Shown piece by piece: positions 4,108 through 55,507 of a stretch of DNA of 64,000 nucleotides; the first letter of the stretch is position 1, and the number at the start of each line of letters is the position of its first letter. The stretch is from NCBI GenBank assembly GCA_016873655.1, contig VGWI01000001.1:3343-67342 (forward strand), written 5' to 3'. Source of the DNA: Lentisphaerota bacterium (lineage in GTDB: Bacteria; Verrucomicrobiota; Kiritimatiellia; UBA8416; VGWI01). The translations under genes were made by a program, and so were the position numbers. The notes below the pieces were generated by a model. The model saw nothing but the letters and a program-made list of their open reading frames with translations, ran no database searches and was not told the origin of the DNA.

Positions 4108-4184
4108 AGGCCAGTAGCTCAATTTGGCAGAGCATCGGTCTCCAAAACCGGTGGTTGGGGGTTCGAGTCCCTCCTGGCCTGCCA
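4108..4184 (+). tRNA. trpT: tRNA-Trp (anticodon CCA)
   Basis: Acceptor AGGCCAG/CTGGCCT, D-arm GCTC...GAGC, anticodon loop CTCCAAA, T-loop TTCGAGT, CCA encoded. It sits between rpmG and secE as in many bacteria. Confidence 0.85.
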
Positions 4185-31105: not shown

Positions 31106-32119
31106 ATGCCAATCAGGTTGAGCAGGTTCGAGATGCCTAAGCGGGTGGAGAAGGATGATTCCACCAGCACGGCAACATACGGGAAGTTCATCGCCGAGCC
31201 GTTCGAGATCGGCTACGGGCGCACGATAGGGAACAGTCTTCGCAGGGTTTTGCTGTCGTCCATTGAGGGCGCGGCCATCACCTCGGTACGCATAGCGGGC
31301 GCGGAGCACGAGTTCTGTTCCATGCCCGGCGTTTACGAAGACGTTACCGACATCATACTTGCGTTGAAGAAGGTCAGGTTCAAGACGTTCGTGCGCGACA
31401 CCAAGACTTTCACGTTGAAAGTGAAGGGCCCGAAAGAGGTGACGGCTGCGGATATCGACACCGGCGGCTTCATGGAAGTGCTAAATCCCGAGCATCACAT
31501 AGCGACAATCGAAGATGGCGCGACGCTGGAGATGGAGATTGAGGCGAGGGTCGGGCGCGGGTTCTGTCCTGCCGACTGGAACAAGAAGCCGAACCAGGAG
31601 ATTGGGCACATACCCATTGATTCCATCTTTTCGCCGGTAACCCGGGTCAATTTCGCGACTGAGATGACGCGGGTGGGCCAGCGCACGGACTATGACCGGC
31701 TGGTCATGGAAATCTGGACGGATGGTCGCATCACGCCGGACGAAGCGCTGACCATAAGCGCTTCCGTTCTGAGGCATCATCTGGACGTGTTTGTCAGCCA
31801 TGACAAGGATATCGTTGAGTTCGAGACGGTAGAGAAGCAGATGGACTCGGATCGCGAGGATCTGCGGCGCAAGCTTGCCATGAGCGTGAACGAGATTGAG
31901 CTCAGTGTTCGCGCGGCGAATTGTCTCAACAACGCCAACATCACGACTGTCGGGCAGCTGGCGATGAAGCACGAAGCGGACATGCTGAAGTACAGGAACT
32001 TCGGCAAGAAGTCATTGAACGAGATCAAGGACAAGCTTGCCGAGCTGGGTCTGTCTCTCGGCATGACTTTCGAGCCGGGAGTAATCGAAGAAAGCGGCAA
32101 GGGGAAGGCGGGGAACTGA
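31106..32119 (+). CDS. rpoA: DNA-directed RNA polymerase subunit alpha
   Basis: NTD (FIAEPFEIGYGRTIGNSLRRVLLSSIEGAAIT) and C-terminal domain (ELSVRAANCLNNANITTVGQL). Confidence 0.95.
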   Translation: MPIRLSRFEMPKRVEKDDSTSTATYGKFIAEPFEIGYGRTIGNSLRRVLLSSIEGAAITSVRIAGAEHEFCSMPGVYEDVTDIILALKKVRFKTFVRDTKTFTLKVKGPKEVTAADIDTGGFMEVLNPEHHIATIEDGATLEMEIEARVGRGFCPADWNKKPNQEIGHIPIDSIFSPVTRVNFATEMTRVGQRTDYDRLVMEIWTDGRITPDEALTISASVLRHHLDVFVSHDKDIVEFETVEKQMDSDREDLRRKLAMSVNEIELSVRAANCLNNANITTVGQLAMKHEADMLKYRNFGKKSLNEIKDKLAELGLSLGMTFEPGVIEESGKGKAGN

Positions 32120-32126
32120 TTCTGCC

Positions 32127-32543
32127 ATGCGACACAAGGTAAAATCCACCAGGCTTGGCCGCACGACGGCGCATCGCAGGGCCACTGCAGCGGCTCTGGT
32201 GCGCGGCCTGATAAACGAACAGCGGATAAAGACGACTCTTCAGAAGGCAAGGCTTACCCGGGTGCAGGCCGAGAAGATCGTGACTGTGGCCAGGAAGGGC
32301 ACGCTTGCCTCCAGAAGGCAGGTAGTCGCGTTTCTTTCAGACGGCCCGCACGTGAAGAAGCTGTTTGAGGAGATAGTTCCGCTCTGCAAAGGCAGGAACG
32401 GCGGCTACACCAGAATCATCAAGCTCGGGAGGCGTGTCAGTGACAGCTCCGAGATGGTGTTGCTCGAATGGGTCCGTTCCTCCCCGGCAGATGCAGCAGT
32501 CACGGCGGGTGACGGCGCCGAAGCCGGGGCTGAAAAGGCCTGA
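32127..32543 (+). CDS. rplQ: 50S ribosomal protein L17
   Basis: MRHKVKSTRLGRTTAHRRA matches L17. Confidence 0.95.
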   Translation: MRHKVKSTRLGRTTAHRRATAAALVRGLINEQRIKTTLQKARLTRVQAEKIVTVARKGTLASRRQVVAFLSDGPHVKKLFEEIVPLCKGRNGGYTRIIKLGRRVSDSSEMVLLEWVRSSPADAAVTAGDGAEAGAEKA

Positions 32544-32604
32544 TCGGCTTCCTGTGACGTGATGCCGCGTTCATGCGCGGCAGCGCCTGCCGGAAGGGAG
32601 AGCG

Positions 32605-33864
32605 ATGCCCCGCTACAAGTACGCGGCGATGGATTCGAAGGGCGGCGAGACGTCCGGCGAGATAGATGCCGAGAGTCAAGCCAAGGCGGTTGCCGCGATC
32701 CGTGCGCGCGGGCTGTTCCCCACGAAGCTGACGCCGACTGCTGCGGGGCCGCGTGCGTCCTCGGGCGCGAAGGGGCTCAAGACAGAGATCCGTCTGCCGC
32801 GTTTTCTGCGCGGCCGAGTTCGAACCAAGCAGCTCATGGTCTTGACCCGCCAGCTGGCGACGCTGGTAGACGCGGGACTGCCGTTGCTGCGAGGGCTCAG
32901 AATCCTGCTCAGGCAGGAGCGTAATCCGACGCTTCGCGAAGCCTTGAGCCAGATCGGCGAGGCCGTTGAGAGTGGAAGCAATTTTTCCGAGGCCCTTGCC
33001 CAGCACCCAAAGATATTCGACAACCTCTTCGTGAACATGGTTCGCGCTGGCGAAGCGGGCGGCGTTCAGGAAGTGGTGCTGCTGCGTCTGGCCGAATTCA
33101 TGGAGAAGGGCGAGCGGATCAAGAACCGCATACGCAGCGCCATGGTCTATCCCGTGGTGGTGCTTGTCGCGGCGGTCGGCATACTGTCATTCCTGCTGAC
33201 CTTTGTCATACCGAAGTTTCAGGAGATATTTGAAGATCTGCTCGGGGACCGCGGGCTGCCTGCCATCACGCAATTCGTGATAGATGTCAGCACCATCGTG
33301 AAAACGAAGGGGTTGTGGGTGGTTGGCGGAATCGCTTTGATCTGGGCTGGGTTCGTGGCTTTCGGGAGGACCCGCCGCGGAAGGCTGATCGTCGACGGGA
33401 TGAAGCTCAAGATTCCGCTGTTCGGCGGGCTGATGACTAAGACATCGGTCGCGAGATTTGCCCGGACCCTCGGGACACTGATGAGCTCGGGTGTGCCGGT
33501 GCTGCAGGCTTTGAACATTGTCCGGGACACGAGCGGCAATTCTGTTGTTGCCAAGGCGATCCAGGACGTCCATGACAGTGTGAAGGAAGGCGACGCCATG
33601 GCCGTGCCGCTCGAGGCGTGCGGTGTGTTTCCGGGCATGGTCGTAAGCATGGTTGATGTCGGTGAAGAGACCGGCGCTTTGCCTGACATGCTTGTGAAGA
33701 TAGCCGACACTTACGAGGACGAGGTCGACACAGCCGTGGAGGGCCTGACCTCGATCATCGAGCCGGTAATGATCGTGTTTCTTGCCGTCATCATCGGGAC
33801 GATAGTCATAGCGATGTTCGTGCCGCTGATTTCCATTATCGGCGAGCTGTCCGGCGGCGCGTGA
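32605..33864 (+). CDS. pilC: type II secretion/type IV pilus inner-membrane platform protein (GspF/PilC family)
   Basis: Two T2SSF-type repeats and 3 TM segments. Conserved GspF segments are LATLVDAGLPLLRGL and GEETGALPDML. RBS GGAAGGGAG lies before ATG 32605. Confidence 0.85.
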   Translation: MPRYKYAAMDSKGGETSGEIDAESQAKAVAAIRARGLFPTKLTPTAAGPRASSGAKGLKTEIRLPRFLRGRVRTKQLMVLTRQLATLVDAGLPLLRGLRILLRQERNPTLREALSQIGEAVESGSNFSEALAQHPKIFDNLFVNMVRAGEAGGVQEVVLLRLAEFMEKGERIKNRIRSAMVYPVVVLVAAVGILSFLLTFVIPKFQEIFEDLLGDRGLPAITQFVIDVSTIVKTKGLWVVGGIALIWAGFVAFGRTRRGRLIVDGMKLKIPLFGGLMTKTSVARFARTLGTLMSSGVPVLQALNIVRDTSGNSVVAKAIQDVHDSVKEGDAMAVPLEACGVFPGMVVSMVDVGEETGALPDMLVKIADTYEDEVDTAVEGLTSIIEPVMIVFLAVIIGTIVIAMFVPLISIIGELSGGA

Positions 33865-34020
33865 TTCGGCCACGCCGCGGTTTCGACAGTCGCATACTCC
33901 AGCATGCCTCCATGTGCACGGCGGTGCACTGTCGGCGCTGTCCGACGATCACGGTTGTCTGGGTGAGTGCCTTCAACCAACTTAACCGCAACGTCTTGTG
34001 TGTTAGTAGGTCTATGGCGC

Positions 34021-34350
34021 ATGCCGTGCTTGGGCCGGTATGGCGAGGTCCAGGAAGAGATGGTCGAGGAGGCCGATGGGGCCGTCACCTCCGGCGCTGT
34101 CGCGACGAACAAGCTCCAGGATCCGTCGGCAACCAATGCTGCTGCCGTGGAATACGATGTTCCCGAGTACGCATATCGTCTGCAGGGCAAGGTGGAGAGG
34201 AAAGAGGGGGCGAAGGTTGGCGGTTCCGCGCCGGGCGGCCCGCAGGAAACGGAACGCAGCGGCGGAGTTGATGTCGGCCGCACCAGACAGACCTGTGGGG
34301 AGATGCCGCTGCCCCCACCTCCGGTTCCTGGCAGGTGCGCAGGTGTTTGA
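34021..34350 (+). CDS. possible small acidic protein, unknown function (weak call)
   Basis: It is the only frame in the 33.9-34.5 kb gap with high GC3 and protein-like composition (EEMVEEADGAVTSGAVATNKLQDP...). There is no convincing RBS; the start is uncertain (34021 or 34060). Confidence 0.2.
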   Translation: MPCLGRYGEVQEEMVEEADGAVTSGAVATNKLQDPSATNAAAVEYDVPEYAYRLQGKVERKEGAKVGGSAPGGPQETERSGGVDVGRTRQTCGEMPLPPPPVPGRCAGV

Positions 34351-34563
34351 GATGGTCATTGCCTCGGTTCCGGCTGTTCGATCTCGCGTTGTGGCGGCAC
34401 CGACGCGTGCGGTGCGACAAGGATTTCCGGTCCGACTGACTCACCATACTTCGATGCCCCCTTTGCTTCGGTAACATCAATTGTGGCGCAATGCGCCTCC
34501 GAAAAAGAGTTTTGATTCCCCCTGCCATTCCGTATAGTGTGCCGACACACTGGGAGGTGGTGC

Positions 34564-35229
34564 ATGACGCGTACAGCTCCTTTTCGCGTGTTTCGGACGG
34601 TGTTGTTTTCGGCCGTGCTTGTGGTTCCCGTGTCGGTGTTCGGGCAGGTTTCGCGAAGCGGGTCCCGCTATGTGGCAGCCTCGTCAGGTGCTGTCGCGGC
34701 CGAAGGCGAGGTCGTCAGGATCCGCAAGTTGCGCGGGTTGAGTGCCCAGGACAAGATCCGCACTCCCAACTATCAGACCGATCTTACGGGCCCGACCAAG
34801 CCCGCCAAGGAGTGGGTGAACATATCGGTCAGCTACGACACTTACCCCGAGATAATCGAAGAGCTCACCTTCCGGTTCTATGTCCTTGCGGGTAAGCGGG
34901 TCGCTGGTTCCCCGGCGCCGGCTTACACTTTCTACCAGGCCAATGTCACTTATCTCGACATTGAGGCTGGACGCGGACATGAGGGCAGCGTTCTCCTGCG
35001 GCCCCCGGCCCTGAAGCTTCACGGTGACCTCATTGCGTTGGCCGTGGAAGTGTATCACAAGGGTGAGGTGGTCGGCCAAGAGAGCGACGGGCCTCGTGAC
35101 TTTGCGGCTGACTGGTGGAAGAAGGTTGACCAGCCCGGCGTCACGGCCAGAGCCGGGTATCTTCTGCCCCGTTCTCAGACACCGTTTGCCTTCGTCAACC
35201 CGGATGACTACGAGTATGCCAGGCCATAG
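34564..35229 (+). CDS. secreted hypothetical protein (Sec signal peptide), unknown function
   Basis: RBS GGGAGGTGG precedes ATG 34564. N-terminal signal peptide MTRTAPFRVFRTVLFSAVLVVPVSVFGQ; no recognisable domain. It is not a class III (prepilin) signal. Confidence 0.6.
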   Translation: MTRTAPFRVFRTVLFSAVLVVPVSVFGQVSRSGSRYVAASSGAVAAEGEVVRIRKLRGLSAQDKIRTPNYQTDLTGPTKPAKEWVNISVSYDTYPEIIEELTFRFYVLAGKRVAGSPAPAYTFYQANVTYLDIEAGRGHEGSVLLRPPALKLHGDLIALAVEVYHKGEVVGQESDGPRDFAADWWKKVDQPGVTARAGYLLPRSQTPFAFVNPDDYEYARP

Positions 35230-35265: not shown

Positions 35266-36924
35266 ATGTTGAGATCCAGACGAATACTTGCTCTTGATAT
35301 CGGGTCCAGCAAGGTGGTGCTGGCCGAGTTTGCCTTGCTCAAGTCGGGCGAGATTCATCTCACGGACTGTGGGATCGGGAGCCTCGGCTTCGAGCCTGAC
35401 ACGGAAGGCGACGTTTCGGCGTACATCGTTTCGGCCATACGCGACGTGATGCGCGCGCGCGGGATGAGACCGGGGCACCTCATGATGACCGTATCCGGTC
35501 ATGCGGTCTTTCCACGTTTTGTGAAGCTTCCGCCAGTGGCGCGCGACAAGGTTCAGCAGATAGTCCGCTACGAGGCCGAGCAGAACGTGCCCTTCCCGAT
35601 AGAGGAAGTCGTCTGGGACCATCAGCTTGTCGGCGACTCGCAGGGCGAGATGAACGTGATTCTTGTGGCGGCGAAGACGGAGAGCATCAAGTCGCTCACG
35701 GACTGTGTTCTTGCCGTTGACATGGAGCCGGAGGTCGTTGACGTCGCACCGATGGCGCTCTACAACGCCGTCAGGTACAACTGCCCGGAAATGACCGGCT
35801 GCACGATGGTGTTGGATATCGGCGCCAGGACCTCGAATCTCATTTTCATAGAATCTTCCCGCATATTCAGCCGCAGTATTCCAGTGGCGGGCAATACGAT
35901 TACGCAGGAGATAGCCAAGGAGCTGGATGTTCCTTTCGCGGAAGCGGAGCGGCTGAAGATCGAGCACGCCGTGGTTGGGCTTGGCGGGGTGTACGCCGGC
36001 CCGGACAACGACACAGCCGATCTTATCTCGAAGATCACGCGCAACGTCGTGACGCGTCTGCATGCCGAGGTGAACCGTTCGATAAACTTCTATCGGGGGC
36101 AGCAGTCAGGGAGTTCTCCCAACAGAGTGCTTCTCACGGGCGGCTCTTCCGTCATACCTCATATGGACACGTTCTTCCGCGAGAAGCTCAAGGTTGACGT
36201 GGAGCACTTCAACCCGCTTGCTCGGGTTCCGGTTGGCGGCAGGCTGGTGCAGCAGGAGGTGGCTCGGGACGCTCATTTGCTGGCGCAGGTTGTTGGGCTT
36301 GGGCTGCGAAAGGCTCTCAAGTGTCCTGTTGAGATCAACCTTATGCCTCCCGACCTCGTCGCGCGCAAACAGATGAGGAAGAGACAGCCTTTCTTTGTTC
36401 TGTCCGCGTTGGGCGCAGCGCTGATTCTGTTGTGCTGGTGGGCGTATACGCGGCAGATGACGGCGGTCTTCAGGACAAGGATCGAGAACATTGAGACGCG
36501 CATAAGCGGAATGGCGAGCGTTGCCGGTCAGCTCGGGCGGATCCAGTCTGAGAAGGCCGTTGTTGACAAGCAGATGGGCTTCTTGCTGTGGCTGGTTGAA
36601 TCACGGGGCAGATGGTTGCAGGTTCTATCGGCGCTGGACGCCTGCCTTCTTGACGGGATGTGGCTTACGTCGGTGAAGCCGGTTGATTCAGGGGACGGGG
36701 CTGTCCGGCGGGTCAAGGTGACAGGGGTGGGTTTTGCGGACAAGTTGAAGGCCGCGGAGCGGGCGGACGCCACTGCGGTTGAGGTGCTGGTGGAGCGCCT
36801 GAAGAAATCGCCGGAGTTCGGGCCGGGTGTCGAGATAAAGCCGGTGCCGTTGCCGGCCATGGGGGCTTCCTCGCGCGATTTCGAGGTAGTCGTGGATCTG
36901 GTTGTGCCGATAGTGGTTCAGTGA
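35266..36924 (+). CDS. type IV pilus assembly PilM-PilN fusion protein
   Basis: N-terminal ~350 aa show the actin-like PilM/FtsA fold pattern (ILALDIGSSKVVLAEF...VLDIGARTSNLIF). They are followed in-frame by a PilN-like segment: INLMPPDL motif, a single TM helix FFVLSALGAALILLCWWAY and a periplasmic domain. Confidence 0.75.
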   Translation: MLRSRRILALDIGSSKVVLAEFALLKSGEIHLTDCGIGSLGFEPDTEGDVSAYIVSAIRDVMRARGMRPGHLMMTVSGHAVFPRFVKLPPVARDKVQQIVRYEAEQNVPFPIEEVVWDHQLVGDSQGEMNVILVAAKTESIKSLTDCVLAVDMEPEVVDVAPMALYNAVRYNCPEMTGCTMVLDIGARTSNLIFIESSRIFSRSIPVAGNTITQEIAKELDVPFAEAERLKIEHAVVGLGGVYAGPDNDTADLISKITRNVVTRLHAEVNRSINFYRGQQSGSSPNRVLLTGGSSVIPHMDTFFREKLKVDVEHFNPLARVPVGGRLVQQEVARDAHLLAQVVGLGLRKALKCPVEINLMPPDLVARKQMRKRQPFFVLSALGAALILLCWWAYTRQMTAVFRTRIENIETRISGMASVAGQLGRIQSEKAVVDKQMGFLLWLVESRGRWLQVLSALDACLLDGMWLTSVKPVDSGDGAVRRVKVTGVGFADKLKAAERADATAVEVLVERLKKSPEFGPGVEIKPVPLPAMGASSRDFEVVVDLVVPIVVQ

Positions 36925-36925
36925 C

Positions 36926-37897
36926 GTGAAGACGCGCAAAGCCATAGTCGTGGGGCTGGTATTCGCCGTGGTGGCGGGGATGCTGATAGGCGCAGCGGTT
37001 CTCCTTGTTCGCGGCACCGGGGAACTGGCCAGGGCGCAGACCGCGCTGGATTCGAAGCGCCGGGAATATGACAGTTACTACGGCAGAAAGCCTTTCCCTT
37101 CGGCTGATAACGTTTCCGTCGAGAAACGGAACCTTGCCGACGAGAAGGGATGGTTGAAGAACATACTGGCGGCTGCGGCGGAGGGAACGCCGGAAGTCCA
37201 GGAGAACACGCCGTCCACGTTCGTGCGGCAGTTGGTGGAAATCAAGGCTCAGTTGAAGGATGCGGCGGCCAGGAGTCGCGTGGCTCTGCAGCCGAGTCCG
37301 GACGCGTTCTCCTTCTCCTTCCAGAGATACTTCGAGGGAAGCGTGTTGCCGGATAAGGATCACGTTGCCATGATGAGTCAGCAACTGGCCATCGTGGAGG
37401 GCTTGTGCCGGCTTCTCTTCAGATGCGGCGTATTGAGCATAGACGCGGTGGCAAGAGACGAGTTCGAATCCGTAAGGGCGACGGTGCAGGGCCCGGGCGA
37501 GGACAGGCCGGGAATACGAGCGCTTGCAGGCGCTTCTCAACGTGACGGCGCTCTTGTCAACAGGATGGGGCCGGTAAGCGACCATCAGTTGTATGCAAGA
37601 ATGTACTTCGGGCTGCGGTTCAAGTCGACCGAGGATACTCTCTGGCGTGTCCTGAACGAGCTTGCCGCGCATGAAGTGTTCTGCGTGGTCAATTCCGTAT
37701 CCGTCGAAAAAGATGGACAGGATATCCGATCTCCGCGCGGTCTGGCAGGCCTGGCCGCGACGGATGCTGACGTGCCGGCTGCCACTGTCGCGCTGCGCGA
37801 GATGTCAAGGCAGGAGAGGCAGGTTACAGGGAAAGAGATCGAGACCCCAGTGGTGGTGACGCTGCACATCAGCGCCTATCTGTTCAAGGTTCCTTGA
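36926..37897 (+). CDS. N-terminally membrane-anchored coiled-coil protein in the PilO position; resembles the Amuc_1100 family
   Basis: GTG start 2 nt after the pilMN stop. One TM helix (IVVGLVFAVVAGMLIGAAVLL), then a coiled coil and an alpha/beta region. The C-terminal pattern PVVVTLHISAYLFKVP and internal segments match my recollection of Akkermansia Amuc_1100; this is unverified. Confidence 0.5.
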   Translation: MKTRKAIVVGLVFAVVAGMLIGAAVLLVRGTGELARAQTALDSKRREYDSYYGRKPFPSADNVSVEKRNLADEKGWLKNILAAAAEGTPEVQENTPSTFVRQLVEIKAQLKDAAARSRVALQPSPDAFSFSFQRYFEGSVLPDKDHVAMMSQQLAIVEGLCRLLFRCGVLSIDAVARDEFESVRATVQGPGEDRPGIRALAGASQRDGALVNRMGPVSDHQLYARMYFGLRFKSTEDTLWRVLNELAAHEVFCVVNSVSVEKDGQDIRSPRGLAGLAATDADVPAATVALREMSRQERQVTGKEIETPVVVTLHISAYLFKVP

Positions 37898-37919: not shown

Positions 37920-38945
37920 GTGATTGCCGTTATCAGGAAGAACTACGACAAGGTGATGGCAGCCGTTGTCACGGTAATGCTTCTCGCCTCGCTGGCGTAC
38001 CTGGCGGCACGGGTTTCGAGCATACGCGAGATGGAGAAGGACTTCGACCAGACGATCAGCATGGTTCGGCCAAAGCATCCTGTAGCCCACTCGCTGGATG
38101 CGACGCCGTACGAATCGGCGATGGCGCTTGTCAGGACCCCGTTCGCCATCAACCCGTCTGACTACACGAATTTCTGGATGTTTGTGCCGGCCAGACGCTG
38201 CATATGCGTCGTCTGCCGCCGTCCGATACCGATCGAGTCAAAGGAGTGCACGTTCTGCTTGGAGCCGCAGCCAGAGCCGAAGGAGACGATGGAGGACTAT
38301 GACGGCGACATGGATGGGATGTGGGACGTATGGGAGAGAGAGCACGGGCTCAATCCTTTCGACCCGTCGGATGCGGAAAAGGACAATGACGGGGACAAAT
38401 TCTCGAATGCAGCGGAATTCAGAGGGAAGACGGATCCGAATGAGGCGTTGAGCTACCCGCCGCTGGAGGCCGAACTGTTTTTCGAGAAGGTAAATGTTGA
38501 CCCGTTCAGGCTTCTTTTCAAGAGCCGTATCACGCTGCCTGGCGGCGAGTTCAAGTTCGGCATAAATACCCGCGAGAACGCGAAGACTTACTTCGTAAAG
38601 ATCGGCGACGATGTGGAGGGGTTCAGGGTGCTGTCCCACGAGGAGAGAGTAGAGACCGTCGTCAAGGGCGGCATGCCGAGGCGAGTGGATGTTTCGGTTC
38701 TCACCCTCAAGCGAGGCGACAGGGAAATCGCCCTCGTAAAGGACCGTGATTTCTCGTACGTGGAGTATCTTGTCCACTTCGTGTTTGCTCTGGATGATCT
38801 CAGATTCCAGAAGAGACCGGAGGACGAGTTCAGTCTCAGATCGCATCGCTACAAGGTCATAGGGGTTGACATTGGCCGTAACCGTGTACTAATTAGTCGC
38901 ATGGAGGATGGGGAACGGGTTGAGGTGACGCCCGTATCCGAGTGA
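37920..38945 (+). CDS. membrane-anchored protein with C4 zinc-ribbon and DxDxDG calcium-loop motifs (PilP position)
   Basis: RBS AAAGGGAGCGGGG precedes GTG 37920. TM helix near the N-terminus. C-x2-C-x15-C-x2-C (CICVVCRRPIPIESKECTFC). Acidic segment DPSDAEKDNDGDKFSNAAEFRGKTDPNE. C-terminal beta-rich domain. Confidence 0.45.
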   Translation: MIAVIRKNYDKVMAAVVTVMLLASLAYLAARVSSIREMEKDFDQTISMVRPKHPVAHSLDATPYESAMALVRTPFAINPSDYTNFWMFVPARRCICVVCRRPIPIESKECTFCLEPQPEPKETMEDYDGDMDGMWDVWEREHGLNPFDPSDAEKDNDGDKFSNAAEFRGKTDPNEALSYPPLEAELFFEKVNVDPFRLLFKSRITLPGGEFKFGINTRENAKTYFVKIGDDVEGFRVLSHEERVETVVKGGMPRRVDVSVLTLKRGDREIALVKDRDFSYVEYLVHFVFALDDLRFQKRPEDEFSLRSHRYKVIGVDIGRNRVLISRMEDGERVEVTPVSE

Positions 38946-39041
38946 GGTTGAGCGATCGGCCGGGCCGGGGATGTAGCTCGTGGCTGGTCTCTCTCAGTGT
39001 CCTTTTCGTTGCTTGGAACAACCACAAGGAGTGAACTTCCG

Positions 39042-42000
39042 ATGACTCGGATTGGCAAGGGTTGGCTGCTTGCGGCGGCTGTGGCTATTATGCTTTCGGC
39101 CGTTGGTGCGTTTCGCGCCCAGGACATTGACGAGAACGCCGCCAAGGTCGCGGAAGAGGTTCTGATAGAAGAGATCGTCAACGGGGATCTCGTGGAGTCT
39201 TCTGTCAGAAGAGAGATGGCGTCTCCTTCTCCAGTTGCAGATGCGGATTCTCTGATAGTTGCGGCCACTTCTTCTCCCTCCCCGGCGCCCGCGAAGGCAG
39301 AAGATTCCGTCGAGTTTCTCGCTGAGGCGGCGTTGGGTTCCGCGCCTGTCCTACCAATGGAGGATGAGCCTGTTGTGCTGCCGGAGCCGTTGGCCCCGGT
39401 CGCTCCAATTCGTTCCGGGGCGGTCGTTGTTGCCTCGCAGATGAGTGAAGAGGAGGCGACCGGTCTGGCAGCGGAGGTGGATGCCGAGGAACTGCTGGCC
39501 AAAGTTGACACTCAATCAGTTGTTTCCGCGGGTAGCGGATTGCCGGCGCCGGCGGCAGAGGAGATCGTTCCGGTTCTGGCTCTCGATGATGTCGAGCCGG
39601 TTGCTCCGGTTGAGGAAGAGGTCACTGAACTGGTTGTCGACGAGCCCATCGAAGAGCCTTTTGTCTCCATGGTTCCTTCCGAAGAAGTCCAGGAAGCCCT
39701 TGTTGAAGAACCGTTGGTTCTGATCGAGCCGGTGGTTGGACCGACAGAGCCGGTTATGACCGCCGTGTCCGCCGGGCAGGGGGAAGGTCGGCCGGTTGTT
39801 GAGAAGGTGGATCCAGTTCACGAGGATCTCGATGCTGACCTGCTTGCGATCATGGGGGCTGAAGCAGCCGTAAAGCCCGCGAAGAAAGTCCCGCCCACAG
39901 AATCGGCGGCACCGACAGCGGGCGACGGTAACGGCGTTAGAGTTGGGGTCGTTGAAGACCAGGAAGTGCTGCGTCGCCGGGCTTTGGCCGCCCACGCGCG
40001 TGAACTCCTGAAGCAGGCCGACGATGACCTGGCCAACGGGCGCTACGAGATCGGGATTGTCCGGTACCGCAACGCCATAAGGGGACTTTCGCTGCCGGCC
40101 GACGTGAAGATCAGGAAGCAGGCAGAGCGCGGTCTGGCCGAGTGCTACTACCGTAACTCCCTTTACCTTGAAAAGCAGAACGATCTGAACGCGTCGCTTG
40201 TGGCGGCGAAATCGTCCATGGATGCCGGTCATCCGAAGGGCGAGGCGCAGTTCGTGAAGATCAAGAAGCTGATTGATGAACCGCCTCCGCCGAAACTGGC
40301 GCCGCCGACCGAACGCTGGAATCAGCAGGAGTACAGGGACAAGCAGGCAAAGATCGCCGACCTCATGAAGCGGGGTCGCGAGTATTCGATGGCCGGTGAA
40401 TTTGACAATGCCGCCCAGGACTTCAGGGGCGTGCTTGCGCTTGACCCCCAGAACACGGAAGCCATGCGATTGCTCAAGAAGGTCGAGCAGGTAATGTATG
40501 ACAGGGCTTCGATGGAAGCCGAAGCCACCCGCCAAAGCATGATGCGGGAAGTGCGCGAGGGGTGGAACCCGCGTGACTACAAGTACGCCCAGGAGTCGGC
40601 TGCGGTCATGAAGCCTGGCGATGTGACAAGGCAGCCGCGCGGCGAGACTGTCCGTACGAGGATAATGAAGAAACTGGAGCAGATCACCATCCCAGAGATC
40701 GATTTCAGGCTGGCGAACATCAACGACGTTCTGGAAGTCCTCCAGGATTCGAGCCGGGAGTTTGACAAGAGTGAGACCGATGAGGGCAAGAAGGGCGTCA
40801 ATATCATCCTGAATCTCAGGTCGGGCGCCACAGGAGGGGCAGCAGCTCCATCGCTGGCGCCGATCGGTGACCTGTTTTCTACGACGGCCCCCGCTTCAAC
40901 CGCGAGAGGCTCGGCGGTCCCGGGCAGCGAGGCGGTTCCGCTCATTACCTTCAATGCGCGTTACATCTCTCTGCTCGAGGCGCTCAAGATAGTCACGAAC
41001 GTCGCGAACCTGAAATGGCGCATTGAGGGCAGCGTGGTTATGATCGTTCCCCTGAACGCCCCTGACGGCGAGGTCATCGTTCGCATGTACGATGTTCTCC
41101 CGTCCGTTGAGGAGAAGATTCCCCAGATGCGTGCCGCGCTTGGCGGCGGAGCCGGCGGCAGCGGGTTCCGTTCGATGGAAGCCGCGGGGATGAACATCGA
41201 AGGTGCCGACTGGAAAGAGTTCTTCCAGGAGATGGGTGTTAAGTGGCCGGACGGATCCTCAATCAAGTACGTTCGGGCGATAGGCAAGGTGGTTGTCGCT
41301 AATACAGAAGATAACCTTATGCGGTTCGAGCAGGTTCTGTCGGTGCTCAACGTTGTGCCCAACCAGATTGAGATTGAGGCGCGTTTCGTGGAGGTCAGCC
41401 GTGCCGACGTGTCCGCGCTCGGGTTCGAATGGCTGCTGACTGACAACTGGGAGATGGCGAGCCATCCTGATGATGCGGCGCTCCCGCCGGCCTCCCGTCG
41501 CCGCCTGGTGATGAACGAATCGAACATGACGAAGGGCAACCGTTTTCTCAGCAAGGAGAGCGTCGCCACCGCCGTGGCGGATGACATAATGACCATATCG
41601 TCCGTACTGACCAACCCGGAACTGTCTTTCGTGCTTCATGCCTTGGAACAGCGCGGGTTTGCCGACCTTCTGTCGGCGCCGAAGGTGACTACTCAGGCTG
41701 GTCAGGAGGCAACGATCAAGGTAGTGACGGAGTACATCTATCCGACGGATTTTGAGGTGACTCCGGTTACCGGCACGGCGACGGCCACAGGCGCAACCAC
41801 GATACGCGGTGGCGTTGTGGAGCCTTCGGGGTTTGAGACTCGCGAGGTCGGCGTCATACTGACTGTGCTCCCGGACGTAAGCCCGGAGGGGCGTATGATC
41901 AATCTGACGATGACGCCTGAGGTCGTAAGTGAGCCGGAGTGGAAAGACTATGGATCCATATTCACGGACGATCAGGGCAACGAGACAAGGTTGAGGATGG

Positions 42001-42356
42001 AGCAGCCTTTCTTTTATACGCGGTCAATCGCGACGTCCATATCCATATACAACGGAGCGACCGTTGTGATGGGTGGTATGATGAATGAGGTGCGGCGCGA
42101 TACCGATGACAAAGTGCCGTTCCTCGGCGATATCCCGATAGTCGGGAAGCTGTTCCGCAGTAAGAGCGAGCGGAGCGACAAGCGCAATCTTCTGATCTTC
42201 GTGACGGCCAAACTAGTCACTCCCGACGGTCGGCCGGTCGAGAAGAGCGGGGAAAGCCTTGCCGGGCGGATAGCCGAAGCCGGTCTGGTGCCGGATCTCG
42301 GCAAGTCGTCGGAAACGTCCGCTGCGCCGGGCATGGGCGGCCTGACGTTCCCGTGA
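39042..42356 (+). CDS. pilQ: secretin (PilQ/GspD family) with long acidic low-complexity N-terminal region and TPR-like repeats
   Basis: C-terminal secretin core (VPFLGDIPIVGKLFRSKSERSDKRNLLIFVTAKLV) preceded by secretin-N-like repeats. Residues ~40-300 are E/P/V/A-rich low complexity. TPR-like helices run ~310-500. RBS AAGGAG precedes ATG 39042. Confidence 0.85.
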   Translation: MTRIGKGWLLAAAVAIMLSAVGAFRAQDIDENAAKVAEEVLIEEIVNGDLVESSVRREMASPSPVADADSLIVAATSSPSPAPAKAEDSVEFLAEAALGSAPVLPMEDEPVVLPEPLAPVAPIRSGAVVVASQMSEEEATGLAAEVDAEELLAKVDTQSVVSAGSGLPAPAAEEIVPVLALDDVEPVAPVEEEVTELVVDEPIEEPFVSMVPSEEVQEALVEEPLVLIEPVVGPTEPVMTAVSAGQGEGRPVVEKVDPVHEDLDADLLAIMGAEAAVKPAKKVPPTESAAPTAGDGNGVRVGVVEDQEVLRRRALAAHARELLKQADDDLANGRYEIGIVRYRNAIRGLSLPADVKIRKQAERGLAECYYRNSLYLEKQNDLNASLVAAKSSMDAGHPKGEAQFVKIKKLIDEPPPPKLAPPTERWNQQEYRDKQAKIADLMKRGREYSMAGEFDNAAQDFRGVLALDPQNTEAMRLLKKVEQVMYDRASMEAEATRQSMMREVREGWNPRDYKYAQESAAVMKPGDVTRQPRGETVRTRIMKKLEQITIPEIDFRLANINDVLEVLQDSSREFDKSETDEGKKGVNIILNLRSGATGGAAAPSLAPIGDLFSTTAPASTARGSAVPGSEAVPLITFNARYISLLEALKIVTNVANLKWRIEGSVVMIVPLNAPDGEVIVRMYDVLPSVEEKIPQMRAALGGGAGGSGFRSMEAAGMNIEGADWKEFFQEMGVKWPDGSSIKYVRAIGKVVVANTEDNLMRFEQVLSVLNVVPNQIEIEARFVEVSRADVSALGFEWLLTDNWEMASHPDDAALPPASRRRLVMNESNMTKGNRFLSKESVATAVADDIMTISSVLTNPELSFVLHALEQRGFADLLSAPKVTTQAGQEATIKVVTEYIYPTDFEVTPVTGTATATGATTIRGGVVEPSGFETREVGVILTVLPDVSPEGRMINLTMTPEVVSEPEWKDYGSIFTDDQGNETRLRMEQPFFYTRSIATSISIYNGATVVMGGMMNEVRRDTDDKVPFLGDIPIVGKLFRSKSERSDKRNLLIFVTAKLVTPDGRPVEKSGESLAGRIAEAGLVPDLGKSSETSAAPGMGGLTFP

Positions 42357-42390: not shown

Positions 42391-43269
42391 ATGCAGAGAC
42401 TGCTTCTCGTTGACGGTCACAATGTACTCTACAGGGCTTTCTTCGCCTTCCCGCCTCTCACCACGCGTGCTGGCGTGCACACAAACGCCGTCTTCGGCTT
42501 CGTGAAGATGCTGCGCCAGCTGCTGGACGTGAGGGGCCCGACACATCTCCTTGTTGTGCTGGACGGCGGGGTGCCCGCGGAACGGTCGGGCATGATCGCC
42601 GGGTACAAGGCGAATCGGAAGCCGATGCCAGATGACCTCAGGCCGCAGGTCGGGCTTCTGGAGAAGTATATGGAGGCTTCGGGAACCGCCTGGCTCCGTG
42701 TGCCTGGCGAGGAAGCAGACGACGTGATGGCGTCAGCGGCGGTTCAATGGCATGGAATGTTCCAGGACATCATCCTGGCGTCGTCGGACAAGGATCTTCT
42801 CCAGGTTGTTTGTGACGGGATTTCTGTGGTCCCCGTGACCGGGAAGGCGAACGTGAGCACGGGGCCTTGCGAGGTGAGGGAGAAGACGGGAGTGGTGCCA
42901 GGTCAGATTGTTGACTGGCTCGCGATGGCGGGCGACGCAGCGGATAACGTTCGCGGCATAGACGGAGTCGGGCCGAAGAAGGCGGCGAAGCTGCTGAGCG
43001 AATTCGGCACCGTGGACGGGGTCTATGGCCATATCGAGGAGTTGAAGCCTGGGGTTACAAGAGATGCGATAGTCGCGGCGCGCGACAGAGTCTATGCAAA
43101 CAGGGAAGCCATGCGATTGAGAACGGGCATTTGCCTTGGCCTGGATCCGGCGGACGCTGAAATCAAGCCGCCGGACAGGCGCAGGCTTGTGCCGCTTCTC
43201 GAAGAGCTGGAATTCAATTCGATGGCGGCGGAACTGCGTCAATGCGGGCTCTTCCCGGGCTTTGGCTGA
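42391..43269 (+). CDS. standalone 5'-3' exonuclease (DNA polymerase I N-terminal nuclease domain / FEN-like)
   Basis: LLLVDGHNVLYRAFFA..., metal-binding acidic clusters and H3TH. The ORF stops at 292 aa with no polymerase domain downstream. Confidence 0.8.
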   Translation: MQRLLLVDGHNVLYRAFFAFPPLTTRAGVHTNAVFGFVKMLRQLLDVRGPTHLLVVLDGGVPAERSGMIAGYKANRKPMPDDLRPQVGLLEKYMEASGTAWLRVPGEEADDVMASAAVQWHGMFQDIILASSDKDLLQVVCDGISVVPVTGKANVSTGPCEVREKTGVVPGQIVDWLAMAGDAADNVRGIDGVGPKKAAKLLSEFGTVDGVYGHIEELKPGVTRDAIVAARDRVYANREAMRLRTGICLGLDPADAEIKPPDRRRLVPLLEELEFNSMAAELRQCGLFPGFG

Positions 43270-43451: not shown

Positions 43452-44048
43452 ATGCTCCGATTAGCCGTCACTGGAGGGATTGCCTGCGGGAAGAGTCTTG
43501 CGGGTTCGATCCTGAATGAGCTGGGGATGCGTGTAGCCGAAGCCGACGACATGGCGCATGACCTGTTGCGGCGAGGCACTGAGACGCACCGGCTGGTTGT
43601 GGAATCGTTTGGTCGGAGCGTGCTGTGGGCTGACGGCGAGGTCGACAGGGCGGCTCTGGGTCGCATGGTCTTTGCCGACCGCAGGCGGCTTTTCAGGCTG
43701 AACGCCATTGTGCATCCCGAAGTAAAGCGGGTCTGGCGCGAATGGCTCTGCAGCGAGGAACAATCCGGCACCGGCGAGGCTGTCGTGGTCGTTCCGTTGC
43801 TCTACGAGGTAGGGGAGGGATCCGGTTGGGACGCGGTGATAGCCGTCACGAGTTCCCGGTCGGTACAGATTGAGAGGATGCTCGGCAGGGGCCTGACTGC
43901 GGTCGAAGCGGAAGCGCGTCTGGGTGCCCAGATGGCGAATCCGGAGAAAGAAGCCCTGGCTGACTACGTGATAAGAAACGACGGTTCCATGGGTCTGCTT
44001 GAGCGGCAGGCTCGCATGGTGGTGGATAGTATTCGGAGAAGAAAGTGA
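43452..44048 (+). CDS. coaE: dephospho-CoA kinase
   Basis: P-loop [12 protein letters not shown] and CoaE family length. Confidence 0.85.
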
Positions 44049-45514
44049 ACATGCCGGACAGAAATCATGGCGGACAGCGGCGGCCGCACCGGGGGCGCCC
44101 CGGCAGGCCGAGACCACACGGTAACCACATGCGCGAGCAGCGCCAATGGGAGAATCCCATGGATGACAGCAGACCCAGAGACGAAGAAGTATTGCCGCCC
44201 CGCGCTGACCAGCCTGAGGGAGATCAGCCTGTGCCGCAGGATGAAACGCGGAAGGGCGGTCCGGCGCTCAGTCTGTACGACCTTCAGGAAAAGACAGTTC
44301 CGGAACTGAATGAAATCGCGGACAGTTTTGGGCTCAAGGATCTCGGAGCGCTTCGTAAGCACGAGCTGATCTTCGAGATACTCAAGGCCAGCGCCCGCGT
44401 TACCGGCGCGATGGTCAGCAAGGGTATCCTCGAGATACTGCCTGACGGGTTTGGTTTTCTAAGGTCCGCCTACAACAACTACCTGCCGTGTCCGGAGGAT
44501 ATCTACGTCTCTCCTTCCCAGATCCGCCGTTTTGCGCTTCGAACCGGCGACCTGGTTGAAGGCGAGATACGCGAGCCGCGCGAGAAGGAGCGGTTTTTCG
44601 CCCTGCTGCGCGTGGACAAGGTGAACGGTGAGAATCCCGACCGGTCGAGGCACAAGGTGCCGTTCGAGAACCTGACCCCATTGTTCCCGAACCGCAGAAT
44701 AGGGCTTGAGAGGGAACCTGACGAGATATCCATGCGCGTTATGGACATCTTCACGCCGATCGGGTTTGGACAGCGCGGCCTGATTGTTGCCGCCCCGCGC
44801 ACAGGAAAGACCGTCCTGCTGCAGAAGATAGCGAACAGCATATCGGCGAACCATCCGGAAGCGCACCTGATAATCCTGCTGATAGATGAGCGCCCGGAGG
44901 AAGTGACCGACATGATGCGCAGCACGAAGGCGCAGGTGTTGAGTTCGACGTTCGACGAAGCCCCGGAGCGTCACGTCCAGGTTGCGGAACTGGTGATCGA
45001 GATGTCCAAACGCATGGTTGAGTGCGGAAAGGACGTTGTCATACTGCTGGACAGCATCACTCGCCTGGCCAGGGCGTACAACACTCTTCAGCCGCACAGC
45101 GGCAAGATCCTTTCCGGTGGTGTCGATGCCAACGCGCTTCACAAGCCGAAACGTTTCTTCGGTGCCGCACGGAACATCGAGAACGGCGGCAGCCTGACGA
45201 TAATAGCCACGGCTCTCGTCGAGACTGGAAGCAGGATGGACGACGTGATCTTTGAAGAGTTCAAGGGCACCGGCAACATGGAACTGTGTCTTGATCGGAC
45301 TCTTGTGGACAAGCGGGTGTTCCCGGCGATAAACATAGAGAAGAGCGGGACACGCAAGGAAGAGCTTCTGCTGCACCCGGATGAGCTGGGGCGTGTGTGG
45401 GTTCTGAGGCGCGCGGTTAACGGCGTACCCGTGGTTGAATCCATGGAGATGATAGTTAACAGGCTCAAGAAGACAAAGAGCAACGCGGAGTTCCTGTTGT
45501 CGATGAAGGAATAG
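44045..45514 (+). CDS. rho: transcription termination factor Rho with basic N-terminal extension
   Basis: RNA-binding domain, Walker A (AAPRTGKT), Q- and R-loops. The ~75-aa N-terminal segment is Arg/Pro/Gly-rich. Confidence 0.9.
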
Positions 45515-55430: not shown

Positions 55431-55507
55431 GTACCTGTAGCTCAATTGGATAGAGCATCAGACTACGGATCTGAGGGTTGCAGGTTCAAGTCCTGCCAGG
55501 TACGCCA
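55431..55507 (+). tRNA. tRNA-Arg (anticodon ACG)
   Basis: Acceptor GTACCTG/CAGGTAC, D-arm GCTC-AATTGGATA-GAGC, anticodon loop CTACGGA, T-loop TTCAAGT, discriminator G and CCA encoded. Confidence 0.85.

Follow-up and report, generated by a model that had tools for sequence, protein, structure and literature searches.

A highly divergent Amuc_1100-family protein occupies the PilO position of an Amuc_1098-1102-type gene cassette in an uncultured Lentisphaerota bacterium

Introduction

The alignment complex of the type IVa pilus (T4aP) machine is made up of PilM, PilN, PilO, PilP and PilQ, and its counterpart in the type II secretion system (T2SS) is made up of GspL, GspM, GspC and GspD. The closest described relatives of the gene considered here come from Akkermansia, where the 'MUL2' locus (Amuc_1098-1102) is important for mucin acquisition and Amuc_1100 is similar to PilO/PilN (bioRxiv 10.64898/2025.12.30.696933). 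PMC13119276 (citing Wang et al. 2020) describes the Amuc_1100 core as two alpha-beta-beta motifs that resemble type IV pilus and T2SS proteins. MUL2 synteny is conserved in aquatic Akkermansiaceae and many Verrucomicrobiales, and the locus is thought to serve attachment and substrate concentration, with amuc_1099 and amuc_1100 called 'uncharacterized' (PMC13174399). Here we analyze a gene within a 64,000-nucleotide stretch of contig VGWI01000001.1 (assembly GCA_016873655.1) from a Lentisphaerota bacterium; this whole stretch is referred to as the window. The gene encodes a protein of 323 amino acids (aa) whose sequence is identical to the NCBI entry 'MAG: hypothetical protein FJ224_00270 [Lentisphaerae bacterium]', where MAG stands for metagenome-assembled genome. 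We refer to the protein as FJ224_00270.

We show that FJ224_00270 is remotely homologous to Amuc_1100 and shares its fold. It is probably the PilO-equivalent, Amuc_1100-family subunit of a type IV filament machine of the Planctomycetes-Verrucomicrobia-Chlamydiae (PVC) type, encoded by the same cassette as MUL2. Descriptions of the PilO-like fold and of the MUL2 locus already exist (PMC13119276; bioRxiv 10.64898/2025.12.30.696933; PMC13174399), and the family has models in both Pfam and NCBIfam. FJ224_00270 is thus a very divergent addition to an established family, encoded in a type of locus that is also known, and not part of a new kind of system.

Homology to Amuc_1100

The homology between FJ224_00270 and Amuc_1100 is detectable only by profiles and structure. 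Pairwise BLASTP between the two proteins gave no signal (E 30), and a phmmer search of the PDB with FJ224_00270 returned one chance match (E 0.066). The NCBIfam model NF038287 ('Amuc_1100 family pilus-like protein') matches residues 12-265 (E 8.8e-22, 77.9 bits), and a precomputed match to Pfam PF28028 'Amuc_1100' is recorded for the identical database protein. A scan with a local copy of Pfam that lacks the PF28028 model identified no family at E<=1. A 148-sequence family profile searched against the PDB retrieved only Amuc_1100 chains (6KNY, 6LAD and 6LAF, E 1.6e-9), and no PilO by sequence.

For comparison of the two families, the Amuc_1100 cluster was retrieved with an Amuc_1100 query (99% identical; 774 member sequences, PF28028), and an alignment of 14 Akkermansia-type members was used in hhalign. 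The local alignment with the family of FJ224_00270 has a probability of 97.9% (E 4.9e-13). The global alignment, with 98.9% probability (E 1.6e-16), covers 291 columns at 16% identity and pairs residues 1-323 with Amuc_1100 residues 1-309. A sequence-only reading of this DNA had pointed to three Amuc_1100-like segments. All three are found in the translation and are aligned as claimed, locally and globally: TPSTFVRQLVEIKAQLK pairs with TPTAFQNELKTFRDSLI of Amuc_1100, QQLAIVEGLCRLLFRCGVL with FELKAINSLVNKLAECGLS, and PVVVTLHISAYLFKVP with QVFVQVSLNLVHFNQP. In the C-terminal strand, G302...F320KVP pairs with G291...F306NQP of Amuc_1100. Residues conserved in both subfamilies are P58/S59, P96, F99, F132, Y135, P142, R177, N244, G302 and F320. 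Of the searches proposed with that reading, profile-profile comparison links the protein to Amuc_1100 and BLASTP does not.

FJ224_00270 resembles Amuc_1100 in length (323 versus 317 aa), in its architecture (an N-terminal anchor and a helical stalk, then an (alpha-beta-beta)x2 core into which two disordered loops are inserted), and in the identity and order of the neighboring genes, CoaE-Rho included. It differs in its low identity to Amuc_1100 (~14-17%, with no pairwise BLAST signal) and in its source, an uncultured Lentisphaerae MAG with ~60% GC. It also belongs to a large environmental subfamily with the motifs PFPS..N, a DVPRLTQQL-type helix and SRxERxVSG, which are absent or partial in Akkermansia.

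The size of the family was estimated with HMMER, using a profile of FJ224_00270 and its closest database relative noted besides the identical entry (44% identity, E 4e-68). Searched against 1.84 billion representatives of clusters at 50% identity, this profile retrieved 982 relatives at E<=1e-3, of which 589 remain at 1e-10 and 203 at 1e-30. The best 150 of the 982 are nearly all ~290-375 aa long and aligned end to end. Ten representatives whose clusters were looked up are all metagenomic proteins.

Predicted topology and fold

An AlphaFold2 model of FJ224_00270, built on the 148-sequence family alignment, has a mean predicted local distance difference test score (pLDDT) of 88.3 and a predicted template modelling score (pTM) of 0.75. 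The gene and the parts of the protein are located in the window as follows:

36926..37897, + strand: gene for FJ224_00270, an Amuc_1100-family, PilO-fold protein (323 aa, GTG start, stop included)
36941..37009, + strand: single N-terminal membrane anchor, ~residues 6-28 (Kyte-Doolittle; within the continuous model helix 2-53)
37010..37273, + strand: helical stalk, residues 29-116 (AlphaFold2 secondary structure, pLDDT >90; conserved columns)
37355..37885, + strand: ferredoxin-like (alpha-beta-beta)x2 core, residues 144-320 (AlphaFold2 model)

The modeled helices span residues 2-53 (anchor and stalk), 60-85 and 96-116, with a short helix at 133-137. The stalk, which is formed by the helices to residue 53, 60-85 and 96-116, bears the family motifs PFPS..N (56-62) and P96..F99 and aligns with Amuc_1100 residues ~31-120. 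In the core, helices (H) and strands (E) form two alpha-beta-beta motifs (H144-167, E171-177, E223-234, H236-247, E252-262 and E309-320), with two poorly ordered loop insertions at ~185-222 and ~263-308. The sequence-only reading had described a transmembrane anchor, a coiled coil and an alpha/beta domain in a high-GC genome. The anchor and the alpha/beta domain are both recovered here, and the GC content of the window is ~0.60. The coiled coil is confirmed in part: the long stalk helices are present and show heptad-like amphipathicity in a crude count.

Strongly hydrophobic 19-mers begin only at residues 3-14 (Kyte-Doolittle mean up to 2.76), and the same 19-mer scan detected no second membrane segment in the protein. 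The basic residues K2, R4 and K5 precede the anchor. Among the 148 aligned homologues, 146 have an N-terminal hydrophobic segment and 140 have basic residues ahead of it. We predict an N-in signal-anchor topology.

The location of Amuc_1100 itself suggests another role. That protein was detected in fractions enriched for the outer membrane, and it is reported to sit on type IV pili and to activate TLR2 (PMC10688800; PMC5332112; PMC13119276). With solid homology between the two proteins, FJ224_00270 could, like Amuc_1100 ('PAS'), be a pilus-associated protein of the surface or outer membrane that acts in adhesion or signalling. It would then be exposed on the filament or the cell surface and not be an inner-membrane scaffold. 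We consider this very unlikely. The anchor is conserved, looks uncleaved and is preceded by basic residues, as is typical of the bitopic inner-membrane proteins PilO, PilN and GspM. The model includes no beta-barrel. A Cys within residues 11-35 occurs in only 25/148 homologues, so a conserved lipoprotein signal is unlikely. In addition, the best structural matches outside the Amuc_1100 family are inner-membrane platform proteins (see below). The organism is known only as a MAG and several related loci are from lake-metagenome MAGs; thus, host TLR2 signalling cannot be the selected function here. TLR2 or host-barrier activity should also not be assumed for FJ224_00270, because its identity to Amuc_1100 is only ~15%.

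An inner-membrane protein of the PilO type is consistent with the structural comparisons. In a Foldseek search of the PDB with the model, ranks 1-10 were all Amuc_1100 (E 2e-10 to 1e-9, probability 1.0, target TM-score 0.74-0.83). After these came PilO structures: 2RJZ (E 2.4e-3), PilO in the Myxococcus xanthus machine model (3JC8_Oa, E 7e-3) and the PilO core 5UVR (E 1.4e-2). The comparison with the Amuc_1100 fold that was proposed with the sequence-only reading thus came out in its favor, and the profile and Foldseek matches together leave a clear similarity to Amuc_1100 and PilO-fold proteins.

FJ224_00270 and PilO (Pseudomonas aeruginosa 2RJZ and 5UVR; M. xanthus 3JC8 chain O) are both bitopic, with a stalk that is coiled-coil or helical and a core of the ferredoxin-like (alpha-beta-beta)x2 type. 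The gene for FJ224_00270 likewise lies between PilN and a PilP-like gene, upstream of a secretin. The protein differs from PilO in having no detectable sequence similarity (8-11% identity in structural alignments) and in that its PilN partner is fused to PilM. Structural matches to GspM/EpsM/PulM and to the periplasmic domains of GspL (1UV7, 7ZE0, 6GHU and 2W7V) are weaker than those to PilO. There is also no sequence similarity to these proteins, and the upstream protein is PilM-like by sequence. Overall, the bitopic topology with a PilO-type core and the fold of the solved Amuc_1100 structures were both found in FJ224_00270, and no sequence or structural match to GspM was better than that to PilO. 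An hhalign comparison of the family of FJ224_00270 with the PilN-like tail of the upstream protein matched membrane segments only (17% probability), so no paralogy between the two is detectable at the sequence level.

Gene cassette and synteny

FJ224_00270 is encoded in a run of genes on the + strand. The features around it are:

32605..33864, + strand: PilC/GspF-type platform protein (Pfam T2SSF 7.7e-66; NCBIfam PilC 1e-125, GspF 2e-122)
34564..35229, + strand: pilus-like protein of the Amuc_1102 family (221 aa with the ATG at 34564 as start; longest open reading frame, ORF, from 34537)
35266..36924, + strand: PilM-PilN fusion, Amuc_1101 family, 552 aa (Pfam PilM_2, NCBIfam Amuc_1101_fam, TIGR01175)
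37920..38945, + strand: Amuc_1099-family protein, 341 aa (NCBIfam, 76.9 bits, above the cut-off of 50)
38997..42356, + strand: secretin of the Amuc_1098 family, bearing a tetratricopeptide repeat (TPR) (Pfam Secretin 2.1e-37; NCBIfam Amuc_1098_fam 7.3e-126)
42391-43269, + strand: 5'-3' exonuclease
43452-44048, + strand: CoaE (Pfam CoaE)
44045-45514, + strand: Rho (Pfam Rho_N, Rho_RNA_bind and ATP-synt_ab)

FJ224_00270 and four of its neighbors match the NCBIfam models for Amuc_1102, 1101, 1100, 1099 and 1098, and the gene order is that of the Akkermansia series Amuc_1102-1101-1100-1099-1098-CoaE-Rho. In Akkermansia this locus encodes Amuc_1102 (238 aa), a PilM-type protein (612 aa), Amuc_1100 (317 aa), an unannotated protein (337 aa) and a TPR-secretin (906 aa), followed by CoaE-Rho. 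CoaE and Rho serve here as synteny markers and are not functional parts of the machine. In Akkermansia the two are called as one 673-aa gene, whereas here they are two ORFs with a 4-nucleotide (nt) overlap. The 5'-3' exonuclease lies between the secretin and CoaE in this lineage and in most of the related MAG loci, whereas in Akkermansia CoaE-Rho directly follow the secretin.

A search of a genome collection with the single FJ224_00270 protein as query identified no relative. With a sub-alignment of sequences sharing DVPRLTQQL, 20 related loci were found, in MAGs labeled Lentisphaerae, Verrucomicrobiota, 'PVC group' or unclassified ('bacterium', 'uncultured bacterium'). The order Amuc_1102-like gene, PilMN, Amuc_1100-like gene, Amuc_1099-like gene and secretin is kept in 20/20 of these loci, as far as the contigs reach, and the exonuclease follows the secretin in 15/20.

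The protein encoded directly upstream combines PilM and PilN. Its cytoplasmic actin-like domain (residues 10-349) matches Pfam PilM_2 (2.8e-39), and the protein matches NCBIfam Amuc_1101_fam (7.6e-149) and scores 145.8 bits with the pilM model TIGR01175, above the cut-off of 133. A membrane segment at ~residues 376-395, with a basic patch ahead of it, is followed by a periplasmic PilN-like tail of ~155 aa. The best PDB match of the tail, using a profile built from 19 loci, is M. xanthus PilN (3JC8_Na, E 9e-4). All 20 related loci have the fusion, as does Akkermansia (612 aa), and its domain order is that of T2SS GspL.

Directly downstream, the gene for the Amuc_1099-family protein starts 22 nt after that of FJ224_00270, behind a GGGAG motif. 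The protein has an N-terminal membrane anchor, four conserved Cys and Asp-rich repeats, and its model (pLDDT 85.4) consists of an N-terminal anchor helix and C-terminal beta domains. A fold search assigned the beta domains to the PilP/GspC-HR type, with a GspC-like best match; a profile of the family found nothing significant in the PDB by sequence.

With PilMN upstream and a PilP/GspC-like gene and a secretin downstream, FJ224_00270 is in the PilO slot of a cassette that reads M-N (fused), O-like, P/GspC-like and Q. This agrees with the earlier suggestion that the gene sits where PilO would be, in a pilMN-x-x-pilQ operon. The two 'x' genes are, at the level of modeled folds, PilO and PilP/GspC equivalents. 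A promoter and terminator scan identified no terminator-like sites between the cassette genes; such sites were rarer than in shuffled sequences.

Some features of the cassette would suit a GspM-equivalent in a T2SS-like system that would use a short pseudopilus to export proteins via the secretin. The PilM-PilN fusion has the GspL architecture (actin-like domain, membrane segment and ferredoxin-like periplasmic domain), the secretin scores slightly better against GspD than PilQ (1.6e-47 versus 7.9e-39), the platform protein is nearly equal as PilC and GspF, and the Amuc_1099-like neighbor has a GspC-like best match. However, the upstream protein passes the PilM cut-off and no GspL model was reported for it. 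The Akkermansia literature also describes a pilus-like system and uptake rather than secretion (bioRxiv 10.64898/2025.12.30.696933; PMC13174399). We therefore regard export by a T2SS-like system as unlikely, and it would alter the output of the machine but not the structural role of FJ224_00270.

The GTG start codon of FJ224_00270 is 1 nt past the TGA of the pilM-like gene, which suggests translational coupling, and it agrees with the N-termini of the aligned homologues (MK.RK...). No clear Shine-Dalgarno sequence precedes it. This and the annotation as a 'hypothetical protein' are the features expected if the ORF were spurious, or decaying and functionless. This explanation has next to no probability and was excluded by the hundreds of homologues with conserved motifs (those listed being nearly all full-length), by the confident AlphaFold2 model and by the conserved synteny in 20/20 related loci. 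Moreover, at least four metagenome contigs, all assembled independently, encode the identical protein. FJ224_00270 is a real and widespread gene product.

Predicted role

We predict that FJ224_00270 acts as a PilO equivalent. The PilO/GspM-like structural role proposed earlier is supported by the modeled PilO-type fold together with the gene position. In the mechanism that we envisage by analogy with the T4aP and T2SS alignment complexes, FJ224_00270 would lie N-in in the inner membrane. Its stalk and core would pair with the PilN-like tail that the upstream fusion protein extends into the periplasm, and together the two would bind the PilP/GspC-like Amuc_1099-family protein, the beta domain of which would contact the secretin. 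Once assembled, these proteins would form a trans-envelope 'alignment' scaffold that connects the outer-membrane pore with the cytoplasmic and inner-membrane motor, which comprises PilM, PilC and an ATPase encoded elsewhere, leading to assembly of a filament or pseudopilus.

Several observations weigh against this assignment. The NF038287 score is below the equivalog cut-off of 180, and the protein is named 'hypothetical protein' at NCBI for this reason; thus, it is a member of the Amuc_1100 family at the Pfam or superfamily level and not a certified equivalog. In other words, Pfam already captures the protein and the stricter NCBI model does not. Canonical PilO, PilN and GspM sequence models gave no match to FJ224_00270 (Pfam, E<=1), so the link to PilO is by fold only. 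Compared with classical PilO, the protein is also ~120 aa longer and has one additional helix and two long loop insertions. Motif scans of the 64-kb window identified neither a class III prepilin signal nor a PilB/GspE ATPase (Walker motif). Finally, a scaffold confined to the inner membrane is at odds with the Akkermansia literature, which assigns Amuc_1100 to pili and to outer-membrane fractions (PMC10688800; PMC5332112).

As for the output of the machine in this uncultured, free-living bacterium known from a metagenome, the MUL2 literature and the metagenomic origin of the organism make attachment to polymers, or their capture, the most plausible function by analogy.

Other features of the region

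The gene for the PilC/GspF-type protein directly follows the rpoA-rplQ end of a block of ribosomal-protein genes (window 31106-33864, + strand). Neither pilC nor rplQ was found within ~5-7 kb upstream of the cassette in any of the 20 related loci, so the pilC-rplQ adjacency seems to be lineage-specific. The gap between pilC and the Amuc_1102-like gene is unusually long (~670-700 bp, 33865-34563). It contains only a doubtful ORF of 109/127 aa (34021/33967-34350) without a Pfam match, and no Rfam family. Across the 64-kb window, the only gathering-level Rfam matches are three tRNA genes on the + strand (2521-2593, 4108-4181 and 55431-55504).

The Amuc_1102-like protein matches the NCBIfam model Amuc_1102_rel (3.3e-10, below the cut-off), and precomputed matches to Pfam PF28178 Amuc_1102 exist on identical contigs; a phmmer search of the PDB with this protein found nothing. 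By eye, its N-terminus resembles a regular Sec signal peptide (MTRTAPFRVFRTVLFSAVLVVPVSVFG/Q) and not a class III prepilin signal.

At window positions 38928-38930 there is one indel and one substitution (GTGACGCCCG versus GTGTGCCCG) relative to four independently assembled and otherwise identical contigs. The indel shifts the frame at the end of the Amuc_1099-like gene, which encodes 341 aa here and 351 aa on the other contigs. Either an error in assembly or variation between strains could account for the difference. The secretin gene is called on identical contigs from the ATG at 39042 (1104 aa) and not from the GTG at 38997, and the ATG is the likely true start. The N-terminal ~300 aa of the secretin (window 38997-39900, + strand) are acidic, Glu/Pro/Val-rich and of low complexity. 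The match to the Amuc_1098 family begins at residue 306, and the TPR motif is at ~residues 456-493.

Implications for the Amuc_1100 family

The analysis extends the cassette, CoaE-Rho included, to Lentisphaerae-labeled lineages with ~15% identity and high GC content. It also provides an estimate of family size (982 clusters at 50% identity), with members spread over hundreds of metagenomic lineages. From the deep alignment emerges a small set of residues that are invariant across the family (PS, P..F, F..Y, R, N, G and F) and are candidates for mutagenesis.

A wider interpretation, which we put forward tentatively and consider doubtful, is that the Amuc_1098-1102 cassette represents a distinct, PVC-wide clade of type IV filament machines, a hybrid of T4aP and T2SS whose ancestral job in free-living bacteria would have been polymer capture or uptake into the periplasm. 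The hybrid parts may include the GspL-like PilM-PilN, the enlarged PilO-like protein, and the GspC/PilP-like protein with its Cys4 module and repeats of Ca-binding type. The TPR-bearing secretin and the 'pilin-like' Amuc_1102, with its Sec-type, non-class-III signal, may be further such parts. If this were true, Akkermansia Amuc_1100 would be an abundant part of a machine, and its immune activity in the host a by-product.

Research on Amuc_1100 has dealt almost exclusively with its activity on the host, as a "postbiotic" protein from a single gut genus. Conservation of the cassette outside this genus supports the view that the primary, selected role of the family is a structural one, in which the protein serves a machine of the pilus or secretion type as a PilO-like component.

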